A stretch of 64,000 nucleotides of DNA, taken from NCBI RefSeq assembly GCF_048593235.1, contig NC_133620.1, forward strand, positions 302,327,765 through 302,391,764, given 5' to 3'. This DNA comes from Sminthopsis crassicaudata (taxonomy: Eukaryota). The translations under genes were made by a program, and so were the position numbers. Each line of letters starts with the position of its first letter. Within the stretch, counting starts at the first letter, position 1. The notes under the pieces were generated by a model. It did no database searches and was not told the origin of the DNA. It was given only the letters and a program-made list of their open reading frames with translations. This document shows positions 5,955-60,750 of the stretch, one piece after another.

Positions 5955-6859
5955 ACCACTCACTATTTCTAAGGAAGGTCTTTATAAATTACAGGCTGTA
6001 ACAACCCCTCTCTGAGGTCCCTACAGACTTACTGGAGACTGGGGAATTCAATAAGACCACTTTAATTGGTTAAAAAATAGGAGGTTAAATTATCCTAGCC
6101 AGTTTGCCCTATCTTCTTCAGGCAAGCCCCACAAACTTTGTAAGTGATACCAAAGCAATATTTTATGGGCGTATTGGGAACAGAATTTATCACCCTTATA
6201 TTTTTGGGATCTAAAGTTAGAAAGAAGGGAGGTTTGGACTTCAGCATACTTAAGTTGTCCGCCTAAACCTTACAGGAAAGGTTTCGTATTTAAAAGAATT
6301 GTTATAGCACAAAGTAAATTATAAAATTCAAAATAAAAACCAATTTACTCAGTATAATGAAAAATTCCTATTAAAACATTGAAAAAATAGATTTTAAAAA
6401 ATAAATTATATCCATCTTAAAACCTAGTCAGCAATATCTATAATGCAATGATCCCATTTTGGATAAAACAAAGTCCAATAACTAGAAGCCTTTTCAATAA
6501 GATCGAGGGTAAAGTCTAGAAAAATCATCATGGCAATTCAATGGAGCAAAACTTAAATTGCGGTTCAAAATCTCATATGTAATCATGTAAGGATTTGAGT
6601 CATATCAGCAAAGTGATTTTCCTACCTTACATAACCATATACTCGGTCTAGTAGTCCACTGTGGAAGATATTGCTGACTAGGTTTTAGGATGGATATAAT
6701 TTATTTTTTAAAATCTATTAGTTGCATCAAGAGATTATGTATGTAGCATAACATGTTTTTGGACGTGTTAGCTTTTTATTAAGTAACCAACCAGTTTTAA
6801 GATCCACTTGTTTGCCTAAGACTGCGAATGTAACAGCTACTTTTAAAGAAACCGTAGGT

Positions 6860-6875
6860 GGCTCTAAGAAGAGCC
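6860..6875 (-). terminator. Histone 3' stem-loop of H3 (loop variant UCUU)
   Basis: Minus strand CCAAA-GGCTCT-TCTT-AGAGCC-ACCTA, followed by HDE-like AAAAGTAGCTGT. Confidence 0.92.
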
Positions 6876-6903
6876 TTTGGAAGTTGATGTCAATAAACTA
6901 AGT

Positions 6904-7362
<459 letters not shown>

Positions 7363-11737: not shown

Positions 11738-12197
11738 CTACCGAGCTTAACGTAAAGTATTAAAACGTTGATCGTTTTTTGTGTATGACGGCAATCTCCT
11801 AGACAAAGCTTTTGCGTTTTAGTTTTGTGATTCCATGGTTTTTAAATTAAACACTTAGCCAGGCGAAGTGTGCCGTAAATCGCTGGGTCCCAAGTCAGGA
11901 AAACTCCTTTAAGTTCAAACTTTAACTCGGGCTCTTTCAGGCTTGTGGGAAATTACCCCATTTGATTCAACTACTTTTAATAAGCAACTAAAGGTTTACG
12001 TCTCGCTAGATAACGACGGACTACGTAGCTAAAAATTAAACAAAACTTAGTTCCGGGAACAGTGTGTGAATTAGTTGGATAAAATTACAAATGAGATTAT
12101 GAAGTTTTTACTTACAGTAGCGAACAAGGCATTCAAAGCCCAGGTAGTTGAAAATTGATTTTGTAAGATTACAGCCATTTTGAATGAAAATGCAGGT

Positions 12198-12213
12198 GGC
12201 TCTGAAAAGAGCC
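12198..12213 (-). terminator. Histone 3' stem-loop of H3
   Basis: Canonical GGCTCTTTTCAGAGCC followed by ACCTG. Confidence 0.95.
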
Positions 12214-12249
12214 TTTTGGTTTGCCTATTTCAAAATGTAACTGTAAATC

Positions 12250-18880: not shown

Positions 18881-19478
18881 CAGTTTCTTCTCTCAACCTG
18901 CTTTATTTCTAAGACCCTGCCATTCCCAGCTGAGGATTTCAATAGAATTCAATTGAAAAGTCAACTGGACATCTTTTCCCATTTGATTCCTTTGGCCACT
19001 TGGTGTTTCATGGTTCAGCTTCTTGAGGAGTGAGATACCTAACAGCATTTGGGGATCTCCAGGTGGGTGTCTCAGATTTTGTGAAAGAATTCACACTCCC
19101 TCAAGTCATTCTCTAATTGATAAATAGTATATGATATGATATATGATAAATGATATATTATATATAATATATATGATATATGACATATAAATGATATGTG
19201 ATAAATGGTATATAAATGATATGAACATACAATTCTCAGATGAAGAAATTGAAACTATGTTTAGCCATATGAAAAGATGCTCCAAGTCATTATTAATCAG
19301 AAAAATGTAAATTAAGACAACTCTGAGATAGCCACTATACACCTGTCAGATTGGGTAGAATGACAAAGACAATGCAGAATGTTGTGTTGTGCCACAGTTC
19401 TCTTTTAAAGTCCTGACCCAGTTTCCCTAATTGTTCCTATTCAGTTACTCTGCCCTCAGGTTATAACCATTCCCTCTT

Positions 19479-22023
19479 TTTTTTTTTTTTTTTTTTTTTT
19501 TAGAGAGTATTCAATACAGAATTTATTAAATGGAGAGATCCATGGTTGGTCCCAGGGCTGAACAAGACTATAATCTCAAAGAATCCAGCACTGAATATCA
19601 GATACAGGAATTTTTATAGGTTGACAAGAACAATGATTTAATGGGGGAGGTACCTGGATGGGGGTGACCTAATGGGGGGAGGCACCTAGGATTACATGAT
19701 GGATGGAGAGGCTCCTAATATTCTAATGATGTCTAAAATAGATAAAGACCTTTATTCCATCAAACATTAAGAAGGAATAAGTATAGCCTAAGGTCTTTAT
19801 CCTAACATTAAGAGGGAATGATTATAATTGAAGCAGAGTAACTGAATAGGACAATTAGGGAATTAGGGAAAAATTAGGGTCAGGACATTAAAAGAGAACT
19901 GTGGTACAACATTCCACACACTCTCTCTTCTAACTATTCAAATCTTTGAATTACCTTCCTCTAGAAGGTCTTAAAACCATAATTTTGACCAACCCTATGT
20001 GAAATAAATAGACCAAATAAAAACCAAAATAAAGCTAGAAAAATGCATGTATTTATGACAAGGACAAGTCTCTCCCTGATAAGCCCAGAGTTAATCAGCA
20101 ATACACAAAGCTCCTTATTGCAATCATGTCAAGTCCTCTGCAGTTGGGGAGCATATGGACAATTCACTGTGAGTTAGGTCTGTGGTCATTTGTGCAGCCT
20201 CTGCTTATAGAGCAGCAGGGCTCAAGACAGTTGTGCTGCCCCTTCAGAAGGGCAACTCTCTCCAGGGAAGAAGGGTAAGGCTCCACCTTGTCCCTGCCCA
20301 GAGGAACAGACAGGACAACAGAAAGGATCAGATTTCTGAGCAGATTATGCAGTTAGACCAAGGCAGGCAAACCCCAAACTTTTAGAAGGCTGACATCAAA
20401 ACTGTAAAGTCCTTTTAAGTATGCTGAAATACTAATTAAGGACCTGGGGTAACAGGAGTGGAGAAACAGATCAGAGAGACTGCCATTCCCTGGACAGGTA
20501 TCTGATTTCTGGTTGTTTTGTAATGCTGGAGAAACTGAGGCAAGATAGAGATTAGAGAGTTTTTAATGTTTTATTAATTGGAAAGTTTAATTGACTAGAT
20601 AGGACTCTCGTCTCAAAGTATCCAGTAATGAATGGGGGAATTACAAACCTTTTATAGCTTTCAGACAAAGAAAAAAGAATAGCAGGAAAAGTTCTTACAG
20701 GGCCAGTTTGGTTCTGTCAGGATGGGGAAAGCAATAAACTCTTACTGAAAACCAGAGTCAGGAAACAGAAGTAAGAATACAAATTGAAGTATCCAGGATG
20801 ATCTTATCTCTTAGAGGGACAGTTAAAAATTCTTTGAAGGCAGAGGGAGCTAGGAGACAGGATGTATGATTTGCTCCTCATCTCCCACTGATAATTTATA
20901 ACCTTAGAGCAAATGATCCTCAGTCTTAATGAACCAGGGGGGGTTTACAACTTAAGGGGACTGAGGCAGAACAGTTAAGGAAATTGAGTTAGATCAATTC
21001 AGGGAGACTCAGGACAATAAGGGAAACTAGTGCAGGGAAACTGACGCAGAACAGCTCAAGGAGACTGTGGAATAACAGTTTCTAAAAAAATAATCCCAAA
21101 AAACTGAGTCTGCCAGGGTAATTCCAACAGAATAAGGGATTTCAAAGTTAAAGCATAACCAGCAAATCACTCCAGTAAATTTAAGCAAGAAGTAATAGAG
21201 GCAGGGTAGAAGTGCCTAAGAAAACACAAAATTTCCCCAATTTCCTGTGTCTTCCTCCCTTTTTTTCTTATGGAAATGAATTATCAAATAACCATTCCAC
21301 ATATAAATCCCAAGAGCTAATCAAAATTCCTATACATATGCATAACAGACAAAAAATCCCTCAAACATAACAGCAATAGTTACACAAGTTTAACAATTTC
21401 CATCCCAAGTCTTAAACACAGTAATAGTTTTAACAATTCAGCCACTTTCCCACTCCCTCATATCAGTCCAAATTACATCAGGAGCAGAGGGGATGGTTTT
21501 CTCAAAAACTGCTTTCTGCTGAAGATGGGAGGAGATTCTCAGTCCAGGGAGGGGGATGGGTGTAATGTGGTCTGCAGACAATCAAAACTCAATCTAGGTC
21601 CTAGAAGTAAGTCAGTTTGTGTAATGTGACCAATCTAGAAACAAAAATAAATTCTCCTGTAGCCGAAAATGGGGGGTGTCTACCATTGTGCTGTTGTAGC
21701 TGGAAACTGTTCTCTTTCCTGGAGGCTCTGGAAAAAAAAAAAAATCCAGGTGGCCTGGCCTCTGGAGGCCAAGAATTCAGATCCAAAGCCATTCAGGCCC
21801 AGGGCAGAGGCCTTTTAAGTTTTTTATCTCTAATCCTGCTCAGTTTCTAATATCTTACTGGGGAGCTCCAAAATGTAATGCCAAAGAAACTGAGCAAATC
21901 AGAGATTAGAGAGTATTCAATACAAAATGTATTAAATGGAAAGATTTACTGGGACCAATGGATCCATGGTTGTTCCCTGGGCTGAAAGGAGACTATTGTC
22001 TCAAAGAATCCAACACAGAATAA
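19479..22023 (-). mobile_element. Retroposed (processed) ERV transcript: R-U5, PBS, internal region, PPT, U3-R, poly(A)
   Basis: R-U5 22023-21874; PBS-like TGGAGCTCCCCAGTAAGA 21870-21853; PPT-like AGAAGAGAGAGTGTGTGGAA 19931-19912; U3-R 19911-19501; AATAAA at 19522-19527; T run 19477-19501; no 5' U3 and no 3' U5; CTCTT duplicated at both ends. Confidence 0.8.
20519..21077 (-). mobile_element. Solo ERV1-like LTR nested in the retroposed ERV copy
   Basis: TG...CA ends; perfect 4-bp TSD GTTT at 20515-20518 and 21078-21081. Confidence 0.9.
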
Positions 22024-22263
22024 CTCTTAATGTTAGGATAAAGGTCTTATTTCTTAGACTTAGGCTATAGTCATTCCTGCTTAATGTTTGATGGGATAAA
22101 GATCTTTATCCATTTTAGACATCATTAGAATATCAAGAGCCTCTCCATTATCTCTCTCCATTATGCCAGCCTCTATTATGTTATTCTCATCCTGGGTTCC
22201 TGTCCCCATTCGGTCATCCCTATCCAAGTACTTCCCCATTATGTTATTGTTCTTGTTGCCCTA

Positions 22264-22447
22264 TAGGGGTTCTCAAACTACAGCCTCAGGCCAGATGCAG
22301 CTGCTGAGGACATTTATGTGGCCATTCGGTTATGGCAAATGGGCTGAGGGGGCGGAGACAGTGTGACTTTTGTTTTTACCCAACAGCCCTCCCACAGTCT
22401 GAGGTACAGTGAACTGGCCCCCTATTTAAAAAGTTTGAGCACCACTG
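22264..22447. mobile_element. hAT/Charlie-type MITE
   Basis: Imperfect TIRs TAGGGGTTCTCAAACT / AGTTTGAGCACCACTG (13 of 16 match), inserted at the CCTATA/CTTATAAA site of the host LTR. Confidence 0.75.
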
Positions 22448-23103
22448 CTTATAAAAGAATGCTATATCCGATATTCAGGGCTGGATTCTTTGAGAGGATA
22501 GTTTTCTTCCACAGATCCATTTGGTCCCAGTAAATCTCTCCATTTAATAAATTCTGTATTGAATACTCTCTAATCTCTATCTTGCTCAGTTTCTCCGGCA
22601 TTACAGTTGGAGGGGATGTGGGAAAATTGGGACACTGATATAGTGTTGGTGGAATTGTGGACACATCCAGCCATTCTGGAAAGCAATTTGGAACTATACT
22701 CAAAAAGTTATCAAACTGTGCATACCCTTTGATCTAGCAATGTAACTACTGGGCTTATATGCCAAAGAGATCTTAAAGAAAGGAAAGAGACCTGTATGTG
22801 CAAGAATGTTTGTGGCAGCCCTCTTTGTAGTGGCCAGAAATGGAAACTAAGTGGATGCCCTTCAATTGGAGAATGGCTGAATAAATTGAGGTATATGCAT
22901 ATTATAATATTATTGGTCTGTAAGAAATGACAAGCAGGATGATCTCAGAAAAGCTTGGAGTGACTTACATGAACCGATGTTGAGTGAAATGAGCAGGACC
23001 ATATTAATTATTATATAATCATTGACCATAATCATTACATAATTCAATAATAATATTATAAATGATCAATTCTGATGGATGTGGCCCTCTTCAACAATGA
23101 GAT

Positions 23104-32499: not shown

Positions 32500-33620
32500 G
32501 CACTCTCACCAGTTCCTATTCAGTGGAAAAATGATACATCAGTGTGGGTAGAACAGTGGCCCTTAACAAGTGATAAAACTCAGGCCTTAGTAGATATAGT
32601 GCAAGAACAACTTGACCAAGGACACTTACAACCTTCTCTAAGTCCTTGGAATTCCCCTATATTTGTTGTGAGAAAGAAATCTAGAAAATGGAGGATATTG
32701 ACTGATTTAAAAAGTGTAAATGAGCAGATGGAAACTATGGGAACTCTTCAGCCTGGACTTCCATCTCCTATTTAATTGCCTAGAGAATGGCCTCTGTGGG
32801 TTATAGACATTGAGGATTGTTTATATTCTATCCTTCTAGATAAGGAGGATACAAAAAGAGTTGCCTTTTCAGTGCCCAGCGTTAATTTAGCTGAGCCTTA
32901 TAAAAGATATGAATGGACAGTTTTGCCACAAAGAATGAAAAACAGCCCTACTATGTGTCAAATGTATGTTGCTGCTGCTCTTACTCCAGTAAGAAAAGCA
33001 TTTCTAAAAGTAATATTATTACATTATATGGATGATATCTTGGGGTGTGCACTTGAGGAACAAATGTTAGAAAACATGTTTCAAAAAGACCATAGAAACA
33101 CTAAGGAACTACAAATTGCATATAGCTCCAGAAAAAATTCAAAGTATCCTAAGGTGCTTACAGAAAAAAAAAAAAAAAAAAAAAAAACTTTCTTTAACAG
33201 AGAAGTTGAACATCTTAAATGGTTTTCAAAAATTAATAGGAGATATCCAGTGGATGTGTCCAGTGTTAGGCTTAACTAACAATCAATTGCAGCTTCTATA
33301 TAACATTTTAAGGGGAGATAGTGCTTTCAACTCACCATGCCAGCTTAACAAAAGAAGCTCAAGAGGCTTTGAGAGAACTTGAACTGGTTTTATCCAATGT
33401 GGTTGAAAAAGTTGCTCAAAAACCCTTGGAAATATCAGGTTTTATAACCCACTGGAAGGGCAGTGTCCAGTGCAACCAACTCTGTTATCTTTAGATAATC
33501 ACCAGGTGATGTGGAGAGATCCAGAAAATGATGAATGGAAGGGACAAGATAAGTTAATTGTTTGGGGGAGAGAATTTGCTTGTGTCTTTACAGATGGAGA
33601 AGGAATCAATGAGCTGTATT
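32500..33620 (+). pseudogene. pol: ERV pol relic: RT joined to the integrase C-terminus, with RNase H and most of IN deleted
   Basis: [33 protein letters not shown]; then WRDPENDEWKGQDKLIVWGREFACV. Confidence 0.88.
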
Positions 33621-44462: not shown

Positions 44463-44993
<531 letters not shown>

Positions 44994-48517: not shown

Positions 48518-48562
48518 TTTTGTGTGTAGGCGTGCAGGTGCAGGAAGCCGGACGGGAGTGCC

Positions 48563-48895
<333 letters not shown>

Positions 48896-48927
48896 CTAAC
48901 TCAATACCTAACCGCCGGCAGCCGCGG

Positions 48928-48980
48928 TATATATAGAGAACGGCCCATTCCGCCACCGGACCTCTTTGAGAACAGGAACG
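48928..48980 (-). promoter_or_regulatory. H4 promoter (TATA and H4-specific site II-like element)
   Basis: CTATATATA at 48928-48936; GGTCCG at 48957-48962 within TGTTCTCAAAGAGGTCCG, resembling the HiNF-P element. Confidence 0.75.
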
Positions 48981-50015
48981 AGGCCAGGAGGAGGGGCAGA
49001 GAGGCCGTAGGAGAGAGCGGGAGAGAAAAAAGGCAGTAAGCTCCTCCCTAAGAGGGCTGATTTGCGGCTTGTTCCTTGCTGAGAGGAGGGGAAGAGGAAC
49101 CTTATGTCGCCTGACTCTCCCGGTTTTTAAATGTTCCTTGTTTGATTCAAGGAGGCCGTGGCACTTCAGTTCCATTCAGTTCTGAAGTGATAGTACTCTC
49201 TTTGAGCTTCTGTTTTGCACGCTTTGCATTGCTGCTTTTGAGAGATGCAGTGGGAGTTTATGACTGATTTTTTGACTTCTGGTATTTTTGCCGTAAGAAA
49301 GTTGTCGAATAAAAGCCCTTGCCATCCCTTGGCCTATTGTCATTTAATTACACCACCTAGGAATTGCTCATACAAATTGCTCAACATGACTATAGGAACA
49401 AAGGCAATATTGCGATGGATGGATCCAAATGGATCTCTGAAATCCCAAGATTGTCATCAGTGCCCTCCTCCCTTCCCCTTCTCGCCTTTTGCATACAATC
49501 GTTGCTTTCACTTTTTAAAAGATGGGTTTAAAAATTGGGTTGGGGTAGGGAGCGGCCCAAGGGAGTTCAGAGATGGTGGAGGGGTAGCCCTTTGACTCTT
49601 TGACCCTTTCTCCCCCCCCCCCCCCTCAGATGCCTCCTCCCACCATCTAGCTTATCTATTATTGTGACAGAGTGCTGGGGTTCAGTTCCTCTGACCAAAA
49701 TCAGAGCAACCAATAATCTCTCGATTTCCTTTAATGGTTATTTGACTCTTGAAAAGGTGATGGAAGCCACAAGGGCAAATGCTTTTTCTCCCTCCAAGAA
49801 GTTGCTGTGGTTGCTGTGGAGATTGGGGTCAGGGAAGGGAAGAGGAATAATGGTCACCTTCGTGGGGATACTACTGGGACCCCAAGAACTGGTGATAGTA
49901 AGGGAGAGGAAAGTCAGGCACAGTCTTATGTGAGTCTTGGATTTCTTGAGAGAAAAGATTGCAAAAGGAATGAGCAGCCCTCAAGGTTGAAGTTCCTGAA
50001 GATACTCCCTGAAGA

Positions 50016-50980: not shown

Positions 50981-51992
50981 AAAGTAGGACAGGTGGGAAG
51001 CATCCAGGGAGATGGGACAGGGCAGTGACACGGTATAGCTAGCTGCCTACATCCTCCTTTGACCTCAGAGGGTGGTTTGGAGGAGTAAATTACATTTGCT
51101 CGGTTGCAGAGAGGCAGATGATGGCTTTTGTGGGGAGGGAAATCTTCTTAACCATTTAGAGCTATCCTTAGTTGCAAAGGGATGCTTCTGTGGGTCCTAA
51201 GAAGAGGGGTTCCCTGGCTCCCCTGCCCCTAGCAAATGGCCACTTATTGGTCACTGAGCAGTGAGAATTACTGCCCTGGTACAGTTTGTGTTGGGTGGTT
51301 TTTGGGTTCCGTCCCAACTCCCAGATTCAGTGATTTTTCTTTTTCTTTTTCTTGAGTTGAATCAAAGGGAAATAAGGAAGCAGCTCAATTACGGGCTTTT
51401 CTCCTGCCCTCCCCCCAACCCCAGCATCCTCTCCCCTTCCCCATGAACATCTAGGCCTTTCTCTGGTCTCAAGCGGCTTGAACCTGAAAAGGTGAAAGTT
51501 TACTAGGTGAAATTAGCGGTCCAAGGACCTTCCCAAGCCCCTTGTGTCTTGAAGGGAACTGCCTGCCTTGGATGCAAAATCCTCCTTGCTGCTGCATCTC
51601 TTTCCCATGAATCCCTATGCCGAAATCGCGGAAGAGCCTGTGCTATTTCCTTCAGCGAGAAACGCGATTTCGATGTAAATGTGAAAGGAATGTTTATCGT
51701 TTTTGAATAAAAGAGAAGTCCAGCGTGTGCTTAAGTATACTGTGGAGGAAAGGCCATCGGGAGTAAAAGGGCAACTCTCGAATTTCCAGGAAACACAGGG
51801 AGTTGTCGCCACCTGAGCTGAGTTTTGTGGAGAGTTAGGGAGATCGGGAAAAGCTCCGAGTGCAATATTTAAGGCTTCAGAAAGAAGCTGAGCGGCAGAC
51901 GAACCCAGAATCTCGTCGCTTCAGATTCGGAGAGAAATAGCTGGATGGCGTGCCGGGAATTGTTGTATTTTCCCCTTTTTTTCCGGGCTAAG

Positions 51993-52090
51993 AAACACAA
52001 CCATGAAGGAGAGTCGAGTGGCTGTAAGAGACAGAGAAGGCGGGTTGCACAGCGCACCAATCACAGCACGGCTCCCTTGTCTATATATAG
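51993..52090 (+). promoter_or_regulatory. H1 promoter
   Basis: H1/AC box AAACACA at 51993-51999, GC box AGGCGGG at 52038-52044, GCACCAATCACAGC with CCAAT at 52057-52061, CTATATATAG at 52081-52090. Confidence 0.9.
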
Positions 52091-52178
52091 TCCCAGGCCC
52101 AGCAGTCTCAGCTACAGAGACCGTGGTGGTCTGTCTTCCTTTGCTTGTCTGTTTTGGAGGCAGTCAGAGCAGAAAGCC

Positions 52179-52838
52179 ATGTCCGAGACAGCCCCCGCTG
52201 CCCCGGCCGCTCCGGCTCCCGCGCCAGCTGAGAAGACCCCGGTGAAGAAGAAGGCTAAGAGGGCTGCGGGGTCCGGCGGAGCCCGGCGTAAGGCCGCCGG
52301 CCCCCCAGTGTCCGAGCTGATCACTAAGGCGGTGGAAGCCTCCAAAGAGCGCAGCGGCGTGTCTCTGGCCGCCCTGAAAAAGGCGCTGGCAGCCGCCGGT
52401 TACGACGTGGAGAAGAACAACAGCCGCATCAAGCTGGGGCTCAAGAGCTTGGTGAGCAAAGGCACTTTGGTGCAGACCAAAGGCACCGGTGCTTCCGGTT
52501 CTTTCAAGCTCAACAAGAAGGCTTCTGCCGGCGACGGGAAAGCCAAGGCCAAGAAAACTGCTGCGGCCAAGGCCAAGAAGCCCGCTAGCGCTGCGGCCAA
52601 GAAGACCAAGAAGGCGGCCGGGGCGGCAGGTGCCAAGAAGAATGTGAAGAAGACTCCCAAGAAACTAAAGAAACCGGCTGCGGTGGGAGCCAAGAAGGCG
52701 ACCAAGAGTCCCAAGAAGACCAAGGCCGCGAAGACGAAGAAAGTGGCCAAGAGCCCTGCTAAGGCCAAACTCGTGAAGCCCAAGGGGGCTAAGCCGAAGG
52801 CCGCTAAGCCCAAGAAGGCAGCGCCAAAGAAAAAATGA
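52179..52838 (+). CDS. H1: Replication-dependent somatic linker histone H1 (H1.4-like N-terminus)
   Basis: 219 aa: [25 protein letters not shown], winged-helix globular domain, lysine-rich tail with S/TPKK motifs; stem-loop downstream. Confidence 0.97.
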
Positions 52839-52881
52839 ACTAAAGGCGCTTCGGAAAATCTCCGCTTTTAGAAGCCTCAAA

Positions 52882-52897
52882 GGCTCTTTTCAGAGCC
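52882..52897 (+). terminator. Histone 3' stem-loop of H1
   Basis: CAAA-GGCTCTTTTCAGAGCC-ACCCC, then GAGAAAGGGCT. Confidence 0.95.
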
Positions 52898-53489
52898 ACC
52901 CCACAGTCTCGGAGAAAGGGCTTATGAGCACACGCACCAACACCGCCCTTGGGTCTTGCTTGCTCTTTGGGGCCCGGTACTGAATGAAGCAAAGGGCGTG
53001 CTTGGGTGGGGTGGGATGGGGTGTCCGGATAGGTCGCAGGTCAGCGTGGGGTTAACGTGGTACATGGTACCCCTGGTAAGTGTCCTCGTGTGCTGCCTAG
53101 GCGTTGGCAGGGTTTTCTGGAGCCGCGAATCGGGCTTCAGGTTTTGCAGTAAAGCCAGTCCGCCTATAGGGTTCTTGGGGCAGCTTCTTGCACCTCGAAG
53201 AGAGGAAGAGCGCAGCAGTGCTGGCTCGACGACTTGTATTGTGAGAACTTGGGTCCCTAATTCAATTCTTGAGCGTTTGTCGCTTATTCAAGTTCCCTGC
53301 GTACGAAAACTTCCCCCCCCCCCCCCAAGTCCAACCCAAGGCCTCACGGGGCCCTTCCTCTCGTAATTTTTTTTTTTTCTTACATACATTTTGCCCACTA
53401 CATCCTAAGCTCCTCGGAAACCTTTCTTTGAGGAAAACTGCCACCAGCCGCGTTGCGTTAACAGCTTTTTTTCCTTGAGATAATTGGGT

Positions 53490-53505
53490 GGCTCTGAAAA
53501 GAGCC
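53490..53505 (-). terminator. Histone 3' stem-loop of H2A
   Basis: GGCTCTTTTCAGAGCC-ACCCA, then HDE-like AAAAAAAGCTGT. Confidence 0.95.
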
Positions 53506-53537
53506 TTTACTCGGGGTGGCTGCTCAGGTGATCCTTT

Positions 53538-54664
<1,127 letters not shown>

Positions 54665-54702
54665 TCTACTTGGCAGCCAACATCCTAATTTACAACCCCA
54701 AG

Positions 54703-54718
54703 GGCTCTTTTCAGAGCC
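54703..54718 (+). terminator. Histone 3' stem-loop of H2B
   Basis: GGCTCTTTTCAGAGCC-ACCTA, then AAATAAGAGCT. Confidence 0.95.
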
Positions 54719-55374
54719 ACCTACTCTCTCAAAATAAGAGCTTTAACTACATGTCACGTTACACGGGGCAGCCTCTCCTCTCTGCTTGCTTTCGGGACTG
54801 TCCATCTCGATTGGGTGGCCTCCTATAAAAAGCAATAGGATTCTAAGCCCTCACCCCCCGCCCCGAGTGCCAGTTCGATTTGGTAGTAACTGTTAAACCA
54901 CGCAACACTACTCTACCTCGCCCGAGACCAGCTTTGCTCCAGATTCTCGCTGGGGGGCGACTACCCCCACCGCATTTCAATCTGGCTAGCTTTACAGAAG
55001 GCTCAAAACTGCACAGAGAGCAGATAAAACTCGCTGAGAGGGCGAACTGCTGGCAAAGCTGGAAAGCAGGGGAGACAAATTAGGTGCACACTCAAGGAAA
55101 TTCCAAATGTTTCCGTCACTTTAAAACGAATTAGAATTCGGAAAAATTGACCTCAGGTCTAGACGGGAATCCCTGCGACCCGGCTGCTGAGGAGCCGCAC
55201 AAGGTAAGAAGGACCTTTTTGATTACTGAAAGTAGAAAAGGGGGTCTAACCAAAAAAAAATAAATAAATAAATAAAAAATAATGTTACTAGGATTAGAAC
55301 GAATGGCCGGGGGTGGGGGTGGGGGTGGGGGCGAGCGAAGGGGGAGTCTCTAAACGAGTTTCATTTATTATTAT

Positions 55375-59270: not shown

Positions 59271-60750
59271 ATGTCCATGAAGCAAATGCCATGCTCTTTC
59301 AATGATGGGCACAATCAGCAATGGAACCACCCAATGTTTCTTGGGTCTTCTTTGTTTCATTTCTCTCCTATGGACAAGGTGAATATGGCTCATTGGCACC
59401 CATCTGATTCCTTCTCCATCTGTAGAGATACAAGCAAACCCTCTCCCCCAAGCAGTTAACCTATCTGGTCCCTTCTATTCACCACTTTATGGATCTCTCC
59501 AACATCACGTGGCAATTATCTAAAGACAGTGGAGCTGCTCCTACTGGACATTGCCCTTCTGGTGTGTTATACAACCTGTCTGCTGGAGCTAATGCATCTT
59601 TATCAAAAATTTTAAAATTAATGGTATAGAGAGCTAAATTTAGAAGTTCTCTAGGGTTTCCTGTGGCTCCCCCATTCTTTTGTTTTTGGAGGAGTGTCTT
59701 GATGACTCTGTTTCTATTGCCTGTCCTTGAGGATTAAAAAGGTGTGGTGTGTAAAATCTGATACTGGGCACAAAAATGTGCAAAATGTTTAGAAGTGTAT
59801 GCACGTCCATTTTCTGTTTTTATTGTTTGTGGCACACCCATGATTGCAAAAGCTTACATAAGGAATTTAGTGACCACTCAGGCTGTTTCTTTGACTGCTG
59901 GTATTGCAAAAATAAATCCTGAAAAGGTGTCTACTATAACATGGATAAAAGACAGACGACCAAAAGCTTTATAATGACTTACATCCATTTGCCAGATTTC
60001 ATTGGATCTCAAACTACAAGGGTTCTTCCCTGGAGGGAAAGTAGAAGCATGGAAAGGAAGGTAAGCTGTACAGTTTTTTACTATGCTCCTAGTTTCCTCT
60101 TTTGTTATCCCGAATTGTAAACATAAAGCTCGAGCAGCCTTTTGATATTTAGAAGATTCTTGGGCTTCCTGAAATAAAGGAGTATTGGCCAACATAATTA
60201 AAAGGCTATCTGCCTTTGAATTACCATCAAAAATAGGACCTGGAAGTCCACTATGAGAGTGGACATGCAAGATATAAAACTTACCTGGATGCTTTCTCAT
60301 TCGCTCTTGACATTCTTTGAAGAGCTGATATATATCAGAAGCTACAAATTTTATTGGGCTGTGGCAATTCTTTGTACCACACCTATTGAATAGGCTGAGT
60401 CAGATATTATATTTATATCTCCTGGATAATAAGTAAGAGCTAGCATGATTGAATACAATTCATTCTGCTGAGTGGATTGAAAAGGAGTTCTGACTACTCT
60501 TTTTATAGTTAAGTCATGAGAGTTTACAGCACAAATGTTATGTTTGGATGCATCTGTAAAGATAATTGGTCCTTTAAGAGGAACTTTAGAAATCTTTTCT
60601 TCAAGAATCCATTGCCAATAATGAAATAATCAGGTTATCTTTAATGGAGACCCATGTGTAAAATTTGGAGCCATGGCCAATAAAATTTGCCACTCTGGGA
60701 CGGTTCCACAGCATATATTAATTTGTTCATTGGTATAAAAGGTGTAGATC

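Follow-up and report, generated by a model that had tools for sequence, protein, structure and literature searches.

Spliced, polyadenylated RNAs of a non-coding LTR element family copied into the genome of Sminthopsis crassicaudata, probably by L1

We propose that a 2.5-kb insert at positions 19479-22023 of the window (the whole 64,000-nt stretch of DNA analysed here), minus strand, arose from a spliced, polyadenylated transcript of a non-coding LTR element family that was copied into DNA, likely by L1 ORF2p through target-primed reverse transcription, at a TCTT/AA site within a solo LTR of the same family on the opposite strand; we put the probability of this reading at roughly 0.92. The insert has ends of the RNA type, a GT-AG intron removed to the base, a non-templated A tail and a duplicated target, and similar structures recur at 20 or more sister loci. 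It has neither of the features of a provirus made by integrase, namely two complete LTRs and a fixed 4-bp duplication. That L1, through ORF2p, was the copying machinery is suggested by hallmarks left in the DNA. Taken singly the locus is ordinary; the spliced set across the family is the part that merits a short study. The features of the locus are as follows, in window coordinates.

19381..19384, plus strand: left 4-bp duplication (GTTG) of the host solo LTR, within an L1 3' region
19385..19478, plus strand: host solo LTR, first part (5' U3), of the insert's own family and on the opposite strand to the insert
19474..19478, plus strand: left copy of the 5-bp target duplication CTCTT (target TCTT/AA)
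19479..19499, minus strand: non-templated poly(A), 21 nt; intact LTRs read on into U5 at the same point
19500..19911, minus strand: 3' U3-R without U5; TATA at 19618, AATAAA at 19522-19527
19912..19931, minus strand: polypurine tract, also in proviral copies
19932..20514, minus strand: exon 2, distal part, non-coding internal sequence
20519..21077, minus strand: solo LTR nested in the insert, from a related yet distinct family, with AAAC duplicated on either side (20515-20518, 21078-21081)
21082..21652, minus strand: exon 2, proximal part, starting at the upstream one of two acceptors
21652..21653, minus strand: splice joint, at the place where proviral copies contain a GT-AG intron of 1.6-1.9 kb
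21653..21851, minus strand: exon 1 leader, from primer-binding site to splice donor
21852..21870, minus strand: primer-binding site, degenerate, of tRNA-Thr(TGT) type
21874..22023, minus strand: 5' R-U5 without U3; position 22014 is the equivalent of the usual family start
22024..22028, plus strand: right copy of the target duplication CTCTT
22024..22605, plus strand: host solo LTR, second part (remaining U3, R, U5), broken by an element of approximately 180 bp at about 22265-22447
22606..22609, plus strand: right 4-bp duplication (GTTG) of the host solo LTR

Read along the minus strand, the insert runs from R-U5 through a tRNA-Thr primer-binding site, internal sequence and polypurine tract to U3-R and poly(A), and all the parts listed in a first-pass annotation of the window, which had also remarked on the lack of a 5' U3 and a 3' U5, are present. 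At the 3' end, AATAAA is followed after 20 nt by the tail, with no U5 beyond it. This is the spacing first reported; the length of the tail, given there as about 22 non-genomic A, changes slightly, since the run of T from 19477 to 19501 comprises 25 bases, two of them from the left duplication and two templated, which leaves 21 non-templated A. At the 5' end the absence of U3 stands, with one correction: the insert begins 9 nt upstream of the family's usual start (LTR position 335), which lies 28-31 nt after TATA in 50 LTRs. The nine extra bases (22015-22023) are U3-like, with at most seven of the nine alike in intact U3 sequences, and a minor start site followed by two later changes is the simplest explanation. 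Their motif is present at only two loci, the insert and L083, a U3-deleted provirus whose 5' LTR resembles them; L083 falls in another subfamily on our tree, and its candidacy as the source is not supported. The search for a close source provirus found none, the best other copies being 88% identical to the insert, and the two R copies of the insert differ at 10 of 90 bases.

The best evidence for an RNA origin is the splice joint, which is absent from the first-pass annotation. In proviral copies the internal region is interrupted after base 220 by additional sequence that opens with GTAAGT (the donor reads GA/GTAAGT in unspliced copies) and closes with a pyrimidine tract and AG preceded by a branch-point motif; in five proviral copies this intron measures 1592, 1644, 1692, 1903 and 2887 nt. 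In the insert the intron is gone and the exons are joined to the base at 21653/21652. Ten spliced copies, the insert and nine sisters, use two acceptors 18 nt apart, the upstream one four times (the insert and three sisters) and the AG 18 nt further on six times (six sisters). When we searched for the pattern of the joint, allowing one mismatch, the 42 matches consisted of seven spliced family copies, two unspliced family copies that keep GT, and 33 chance occurrences; U3 is absent from all seven of the spliced copies. Exact matches to the unspliced donor numbered 58, of which 45 have a family U3, one is a retrocopy and 12 are unclassifiable. U3 is missing from 7/7 copies found with the joint pattern versus 1/46 classifiable copies with the exact unspliced donor (p = 5e-8).

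The genome (3.24 Gb searched, in 8 contigs) holds at least 20 sister retrocopies, which are spliced, unspliced, 5'-truncated or R-only and most of which share one poly(A) site. Among the 20 sisters examined, 14 are near-full-length (nine spliced, three unspliced, and two with other internal deletions), one is truncated in the internal region and five consist of LTR only; counting the insert, 10 of 15 near-full-length retrocopies are spliced, a proportion drawn from searches that partly favoured spliced copies. The exact poly(A) junction has six matches in the genome versus 257 exact continuations into U5, and 13 matches genome-wide if two mismatches are allowed, with no control matches at either stringency, which sets the junction apart from chance. 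The 5' ends of 18 sisters align at LTR positions 335-342, and a cap-derived extra G is clear at the 5' end of one sister and ambiguous in all the others. Duplications of 11-17 bp flank 14 of the 18 sisters with a mapped 3' end, and none was found for the other four; among 182 mismatched flank pairs only one reached such a score, although the 14 were selected for having a duplication. As the first-pass annotation had anticipated, then, the family has other members polyadenylated at the same base, and others that start at R without a 5' U3 and have duplications of variable length.

The retrocopies do not trace to one parent. In a tree of 53 copies, from which two were dropped as too short and for which the bootstrap is not settled, they require 13 label changes, compared with a mean of 13.4 for shuffled labels; they are scattered as shuffled labels would be, and therefore come from many sources, with no single master copy. 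They account for 5 of 39 other best internal matches, for 4 of 61 when exact motifs are required and for 6 of 263 LTR ends, and are a minority of the family, roughly 2-13% depending on the measure. The earlier suggestion that the family has spread partly by L1 holds as a process, for that minority of copies only.

The description of the insert as an L1-type processed copy of an LTR-element RNA, also made at first pass, is supported by the ends of the sisters and by their long duplications of variable length. Most of these duplications start with a run of A after a T, and most sisters have T/AAAA-like targets. It is improbable, in our view, that another LINE, such as a marsupial RTE, copied the RNA: the CAA-containing tails of two sisters and the short duplication at the insert could be taken to favour such an element, but the pure A tails, T/AAAA-type targets and 11-17 bp duplications that prevail across the family are the hallmarks of L1 as given for HERV-W, and three LTR pieces directly follow an L1 3' end. 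CAA repeats, moreover, are a common decay product of poly(A).

At the insert itself, CTCTT is found on both sides, in agreement with the first-pass annotation, and the 5-mer is single in uninterrupted LTRs (CTCTT in 24 of 53, CTTTT in 22 of 53). We rely on this comparison with intact LTRs because a duplication of five bases is by itself at chance level; indeed, an automatic duplication search did not pick CTCTT out, and the duplication is shorter than all 14 found in sister retrocopies. Its shortness would be explained if L1 made the copy at a site set by homology, with the U3 of the RNA pairing with the host LTR and exposing the T-rich strand for nicking. Landing in an LTR of its own family is unusual; the target does lie in U3, a region that the RNA carries, and with 2504 candidates of about 470 bp the family makes up far less than 1% of the genome. 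Nonetheless, a same-family LTR was present in the fetched flanks of 0 of 20 sisters, and the window is LTR-rich and was selected for looking odd. We consider homology-guided targeting about as unlikely as copying by another LINE.

Less probable again is a rearrangement at the DNA level, by inversion, deletion or gene conversion between neighbouring LTR elements, that mimics an RNA copy. The insert does lie inside a same-family LTR in opposite orientation, and inverted family pairs occur elsewhere (L026, L044, L064), but such events can neither excise a GT-AG intron to the exact base nor add a tail of 21 A, and they cannot give identical ends at numerous unlinked loci; moreover, the host LTR is whole, has a 4-bp duplication of its own and is separated from the insert's LTR by many changes and gaps. 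The L1 flanks on its two sides are contiguous on another L1 of the window. An assembly artefact is scarcely credible: the locus is all repeats, and no listed independent contig spans the poly(A) or the 5' junction, but contigs from run X1, possibly the source sample, cover the splice joint without difference (178 nt) and the leader and U5 with one difference (226 nt), and the splice and poly(A) positions are canonical and common to other loci. A search for the empty orthologous site and for the end junctions in four public runs returned short contigs dominated by paralogues.

A first look across the genome gave 2504 candidates for the LTR and 1479-1808 for internal parts of the element. Five complete proviruses have 1.7-3.0 kb between LTRs, and the two LTRs of a pair differ by 6-12%. 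An exact 4-bp duplication flanks 13 of 23 complete LTRs, with three of four bases matching in six more; the host LTR, the nested LTR and solo LTRs of the family carry such duplications, and the insert does not. In a well-kept copy, the primer-binding site complements the 3' end of the tRNA-Thr(TGT) genes of this genome (five of six pattern matches are such genes), which confirms the annotated resemblance to tRNA-Thr. Pfam matched nothing in 12 frames of two proviruses and the insert, 58 further loci contained no long family reading frame, and neither a coding remnant (gag, pol, env) nor a long helper provirus was found in the loci examined; the family looks non-autonomous. It shares TG...CA LTRs, a tRNA primer-binding site, a polypurine tract, 4-bp duplications and many solo LTRs with class I (ERV1-like) non-autonomous LTR elements. 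Of the earlier label 'gamma-like' ERV, the 4-bp duplications stand, and their length is the one basis on which the family would be placed in class I, there being no pol match.

If L1 copied a spliced RNA, as we propose, a provirus would have been transcribed from its 5' LTR in the germ line, and the transcript would have been spliced and then cleaved 20 nt after the 3' AATAAA. An L1 protein would have bound the tail, and after a nick at TCTT/AA the tail would have primed copying by ORF2p; the whole RNA would have been copied, with a second nick 5 nt away, and a second solo LTR would have landed in the insert later. An insert without U3 would have no promoter of its own, and the locus itself is probably inert. 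The 5' R of the insert has AATACA in place of the polyadenylation signal, and we considered loss of the 5' AATAAA as a route to read-through; we reject it, as nearly all long sisters keep AATAAA, so the signal was suppressed by something. U1 binding at the donor is, by analogy, a candidate suppressor (PMC3694450). The R-only copies indicate that the signal in the 5' R was also used.

In retroviruses, the packaging signal is lost along with the intron on splicing. By analogy, splicing here would remove the packaging region behind the donor, which might leave L1 as the only machinery able to copy spliced RNA. The absence of spliced copies with two full LTRs fits such a loss.

The process is already known from HERV-W, HERV-K rec and LTR fragments of the Tasmanian devil, and what we describe is a further family, probably a marsupial one; comparisons with these systems draw on the parts of the cited papers that were accessible. 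HERV-W processed pseudogenes have R-U5 and U3-R ends, poly(A), a TT/AAAA-type site and a 5-15 bp duplication, and 135 of 213 HERV-W loci are processed (PMC5537654, PMC5016936); a minority of copies lack the pre-gag intron (PMC6995185). The insert likewise has a reduced 5' LTR (R-U5), a reduced 3' LTR (U3-R) with poly(A), and a TT/AAAA-type target (TCTT/AA); its 5-bp duplication is at the lower limit of the HERV-W range, with those of the sisters at 11-17 bp, and its intron is removed at donor and acceptor, as in spliced HERV-W members. By contrast, HERV-W is a coding primate family with two thirds of its loci processed and a minority spliced, whereas the family described here has no coding remnant and its processed copies are a minority. 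A spliced ERV RNA copied by L1 has been reported for the HERV-K(HML-2) rec mRNA, with retrocopies ERVK-30 and ERVK-31 (PMC4351823). These share with our copies the boundaries at donor and acceptor, the poly(A) and the duplication, and differ in being two loci of a coding, beta-like family, compared with at least 10 spliced loci here.

The first-pass annotation knew of no marsupial report of this process, which needs revision: in the Tasmanian devil, Gallus et al. (2015) reported five LTR fragments with poly(A), from another ERV1, whose mobilisation they attributed to L1 (PMC4408412). That element is also a dasyurid LTR family with 4-nt duplications, and two of its poly(A) copies are seen with 6-7 nt duplications; compared by eye, its LTR (589-711 nt) differs in termini and body. 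The devil fragments are only 188-335 nt long, which was explained by priming on an internal A stretch, and the accessible part of the report does not describe R-U5-internal-U3-R or spliced copies (PMC4408412). In the literature searchable outside subscription papers and Repbase, we found no report of whole or spliced marsupial ERV retrocopies, and the word 'pseudogene' is absent from the main text, as far as accessible, of two papers on dasyurid ERVs (PMC11334065, PMC13641905).

We lean, with only slightly better than even confidence, towards a broader reading, in which this is the first marsupial family with whole, mostly spliced ERV RNAs copied repeatedly by L1 from many proviruses. The copies would then preserve, as fossils, the transcript map of a non-coding element now extinct, recording its start site, two acceptors, poly(A) site, and short R-only and read-through RNAs, and RNAs would have been sorted, unspliced RNA going to a retroviral helper and spliced RNA to L1 only. 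Reviews single out HERV-W as the only human ERV group that L1 has mobilised, and they do not settle which properties turn an ERV RNA into an L1 substrate (PMC5537654). If our reading is true, HERV-W is less exceptional than has been said; a second family, unrelated and non-coding, whose many retrocopies stem from many sources, suggests that an ERV RNA need only be abundant and polyadenylated in the germ line to qualify. Spliced retrocopies versus unspliced proviruses offer a countable test of whether splicing steers RNA to packaging or to L1, and the retrocopies also record past L1 activity in the lineage and exact LTR boundaries.

Several family copies depart from the common structure. At L158, L159 and L160 (C1:310.88 Mb, C4:296.09 Mb and C2:33.96 Mb), an L1 3' end is followed by a stretch of the family LTR that starts in the TATA region (position 309) and stops at the poly(A) site, and then by an A-rich tail; these are likely 3' transductions from an L1 inside the LTR that used the LTR's poly(A) signal. 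L138, L141, L148 and probably L144 are R-only retrocopies of approximately 110 nt running from the start site to the poly(A) site, three of them with 14-17 bp duplications; we read them as SINE-sized RNAs from solo or 5' LTRs. The retrocopy at L157 (C2:643.34 Mb) passes through U5 to an A-rich tail further on, with a 16-bp duplication, and we read it as read-through polyadenylation. In L152, L079 and L100 the 5' and 3' R of one retrocopy differ by 12-18%, and some are of different LTR subtypes, hinting at recombinant source proviruses. Family copies at L044 (C3:370.16 Mb), L026 and L064 are in inverted pairs or back-to-back. At L164 (C1:406.598 Mb), in a family copy lacking any 5' LTR match, tRNA-Thr 3'-end sequence lies approximately 190 nt from the splice donor and runs into the T-loop motif; this is possibly primer tRNA copied into DNA.

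None of the 63 other copies that retain both flanks has the nested solo LTR. Since its sequence includes an AATAAA in sense orientation, it probably arrived after retroposition; its relative age by identity (88-92% versus 88%) is not decisive. Close relatives of part of it (window 20668-21009) are far commoner in run X1 than in those from three other organisms, which hints at a lineage-specific expansion. The element of approximately 180 bp that interrupts the TATA region of the host LTR has inverted ends and the look of a hAT MITE; a similar piece also breaks the LTR of L051. Broken retroviral frames that look RT-like and integrase-like by eye lie at 32776-33279 and 59878-60399 and are unrelated to the insert. 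The insert locus lies in a replication-dependent histone gene cluster (6835-7362, 12173-12218, 44463-44966, 48530-49039 and 51873-54743), which comprises H3, H1 and H2A, antisense frames that suggest H4 and H2B, and five histone stem-loops.
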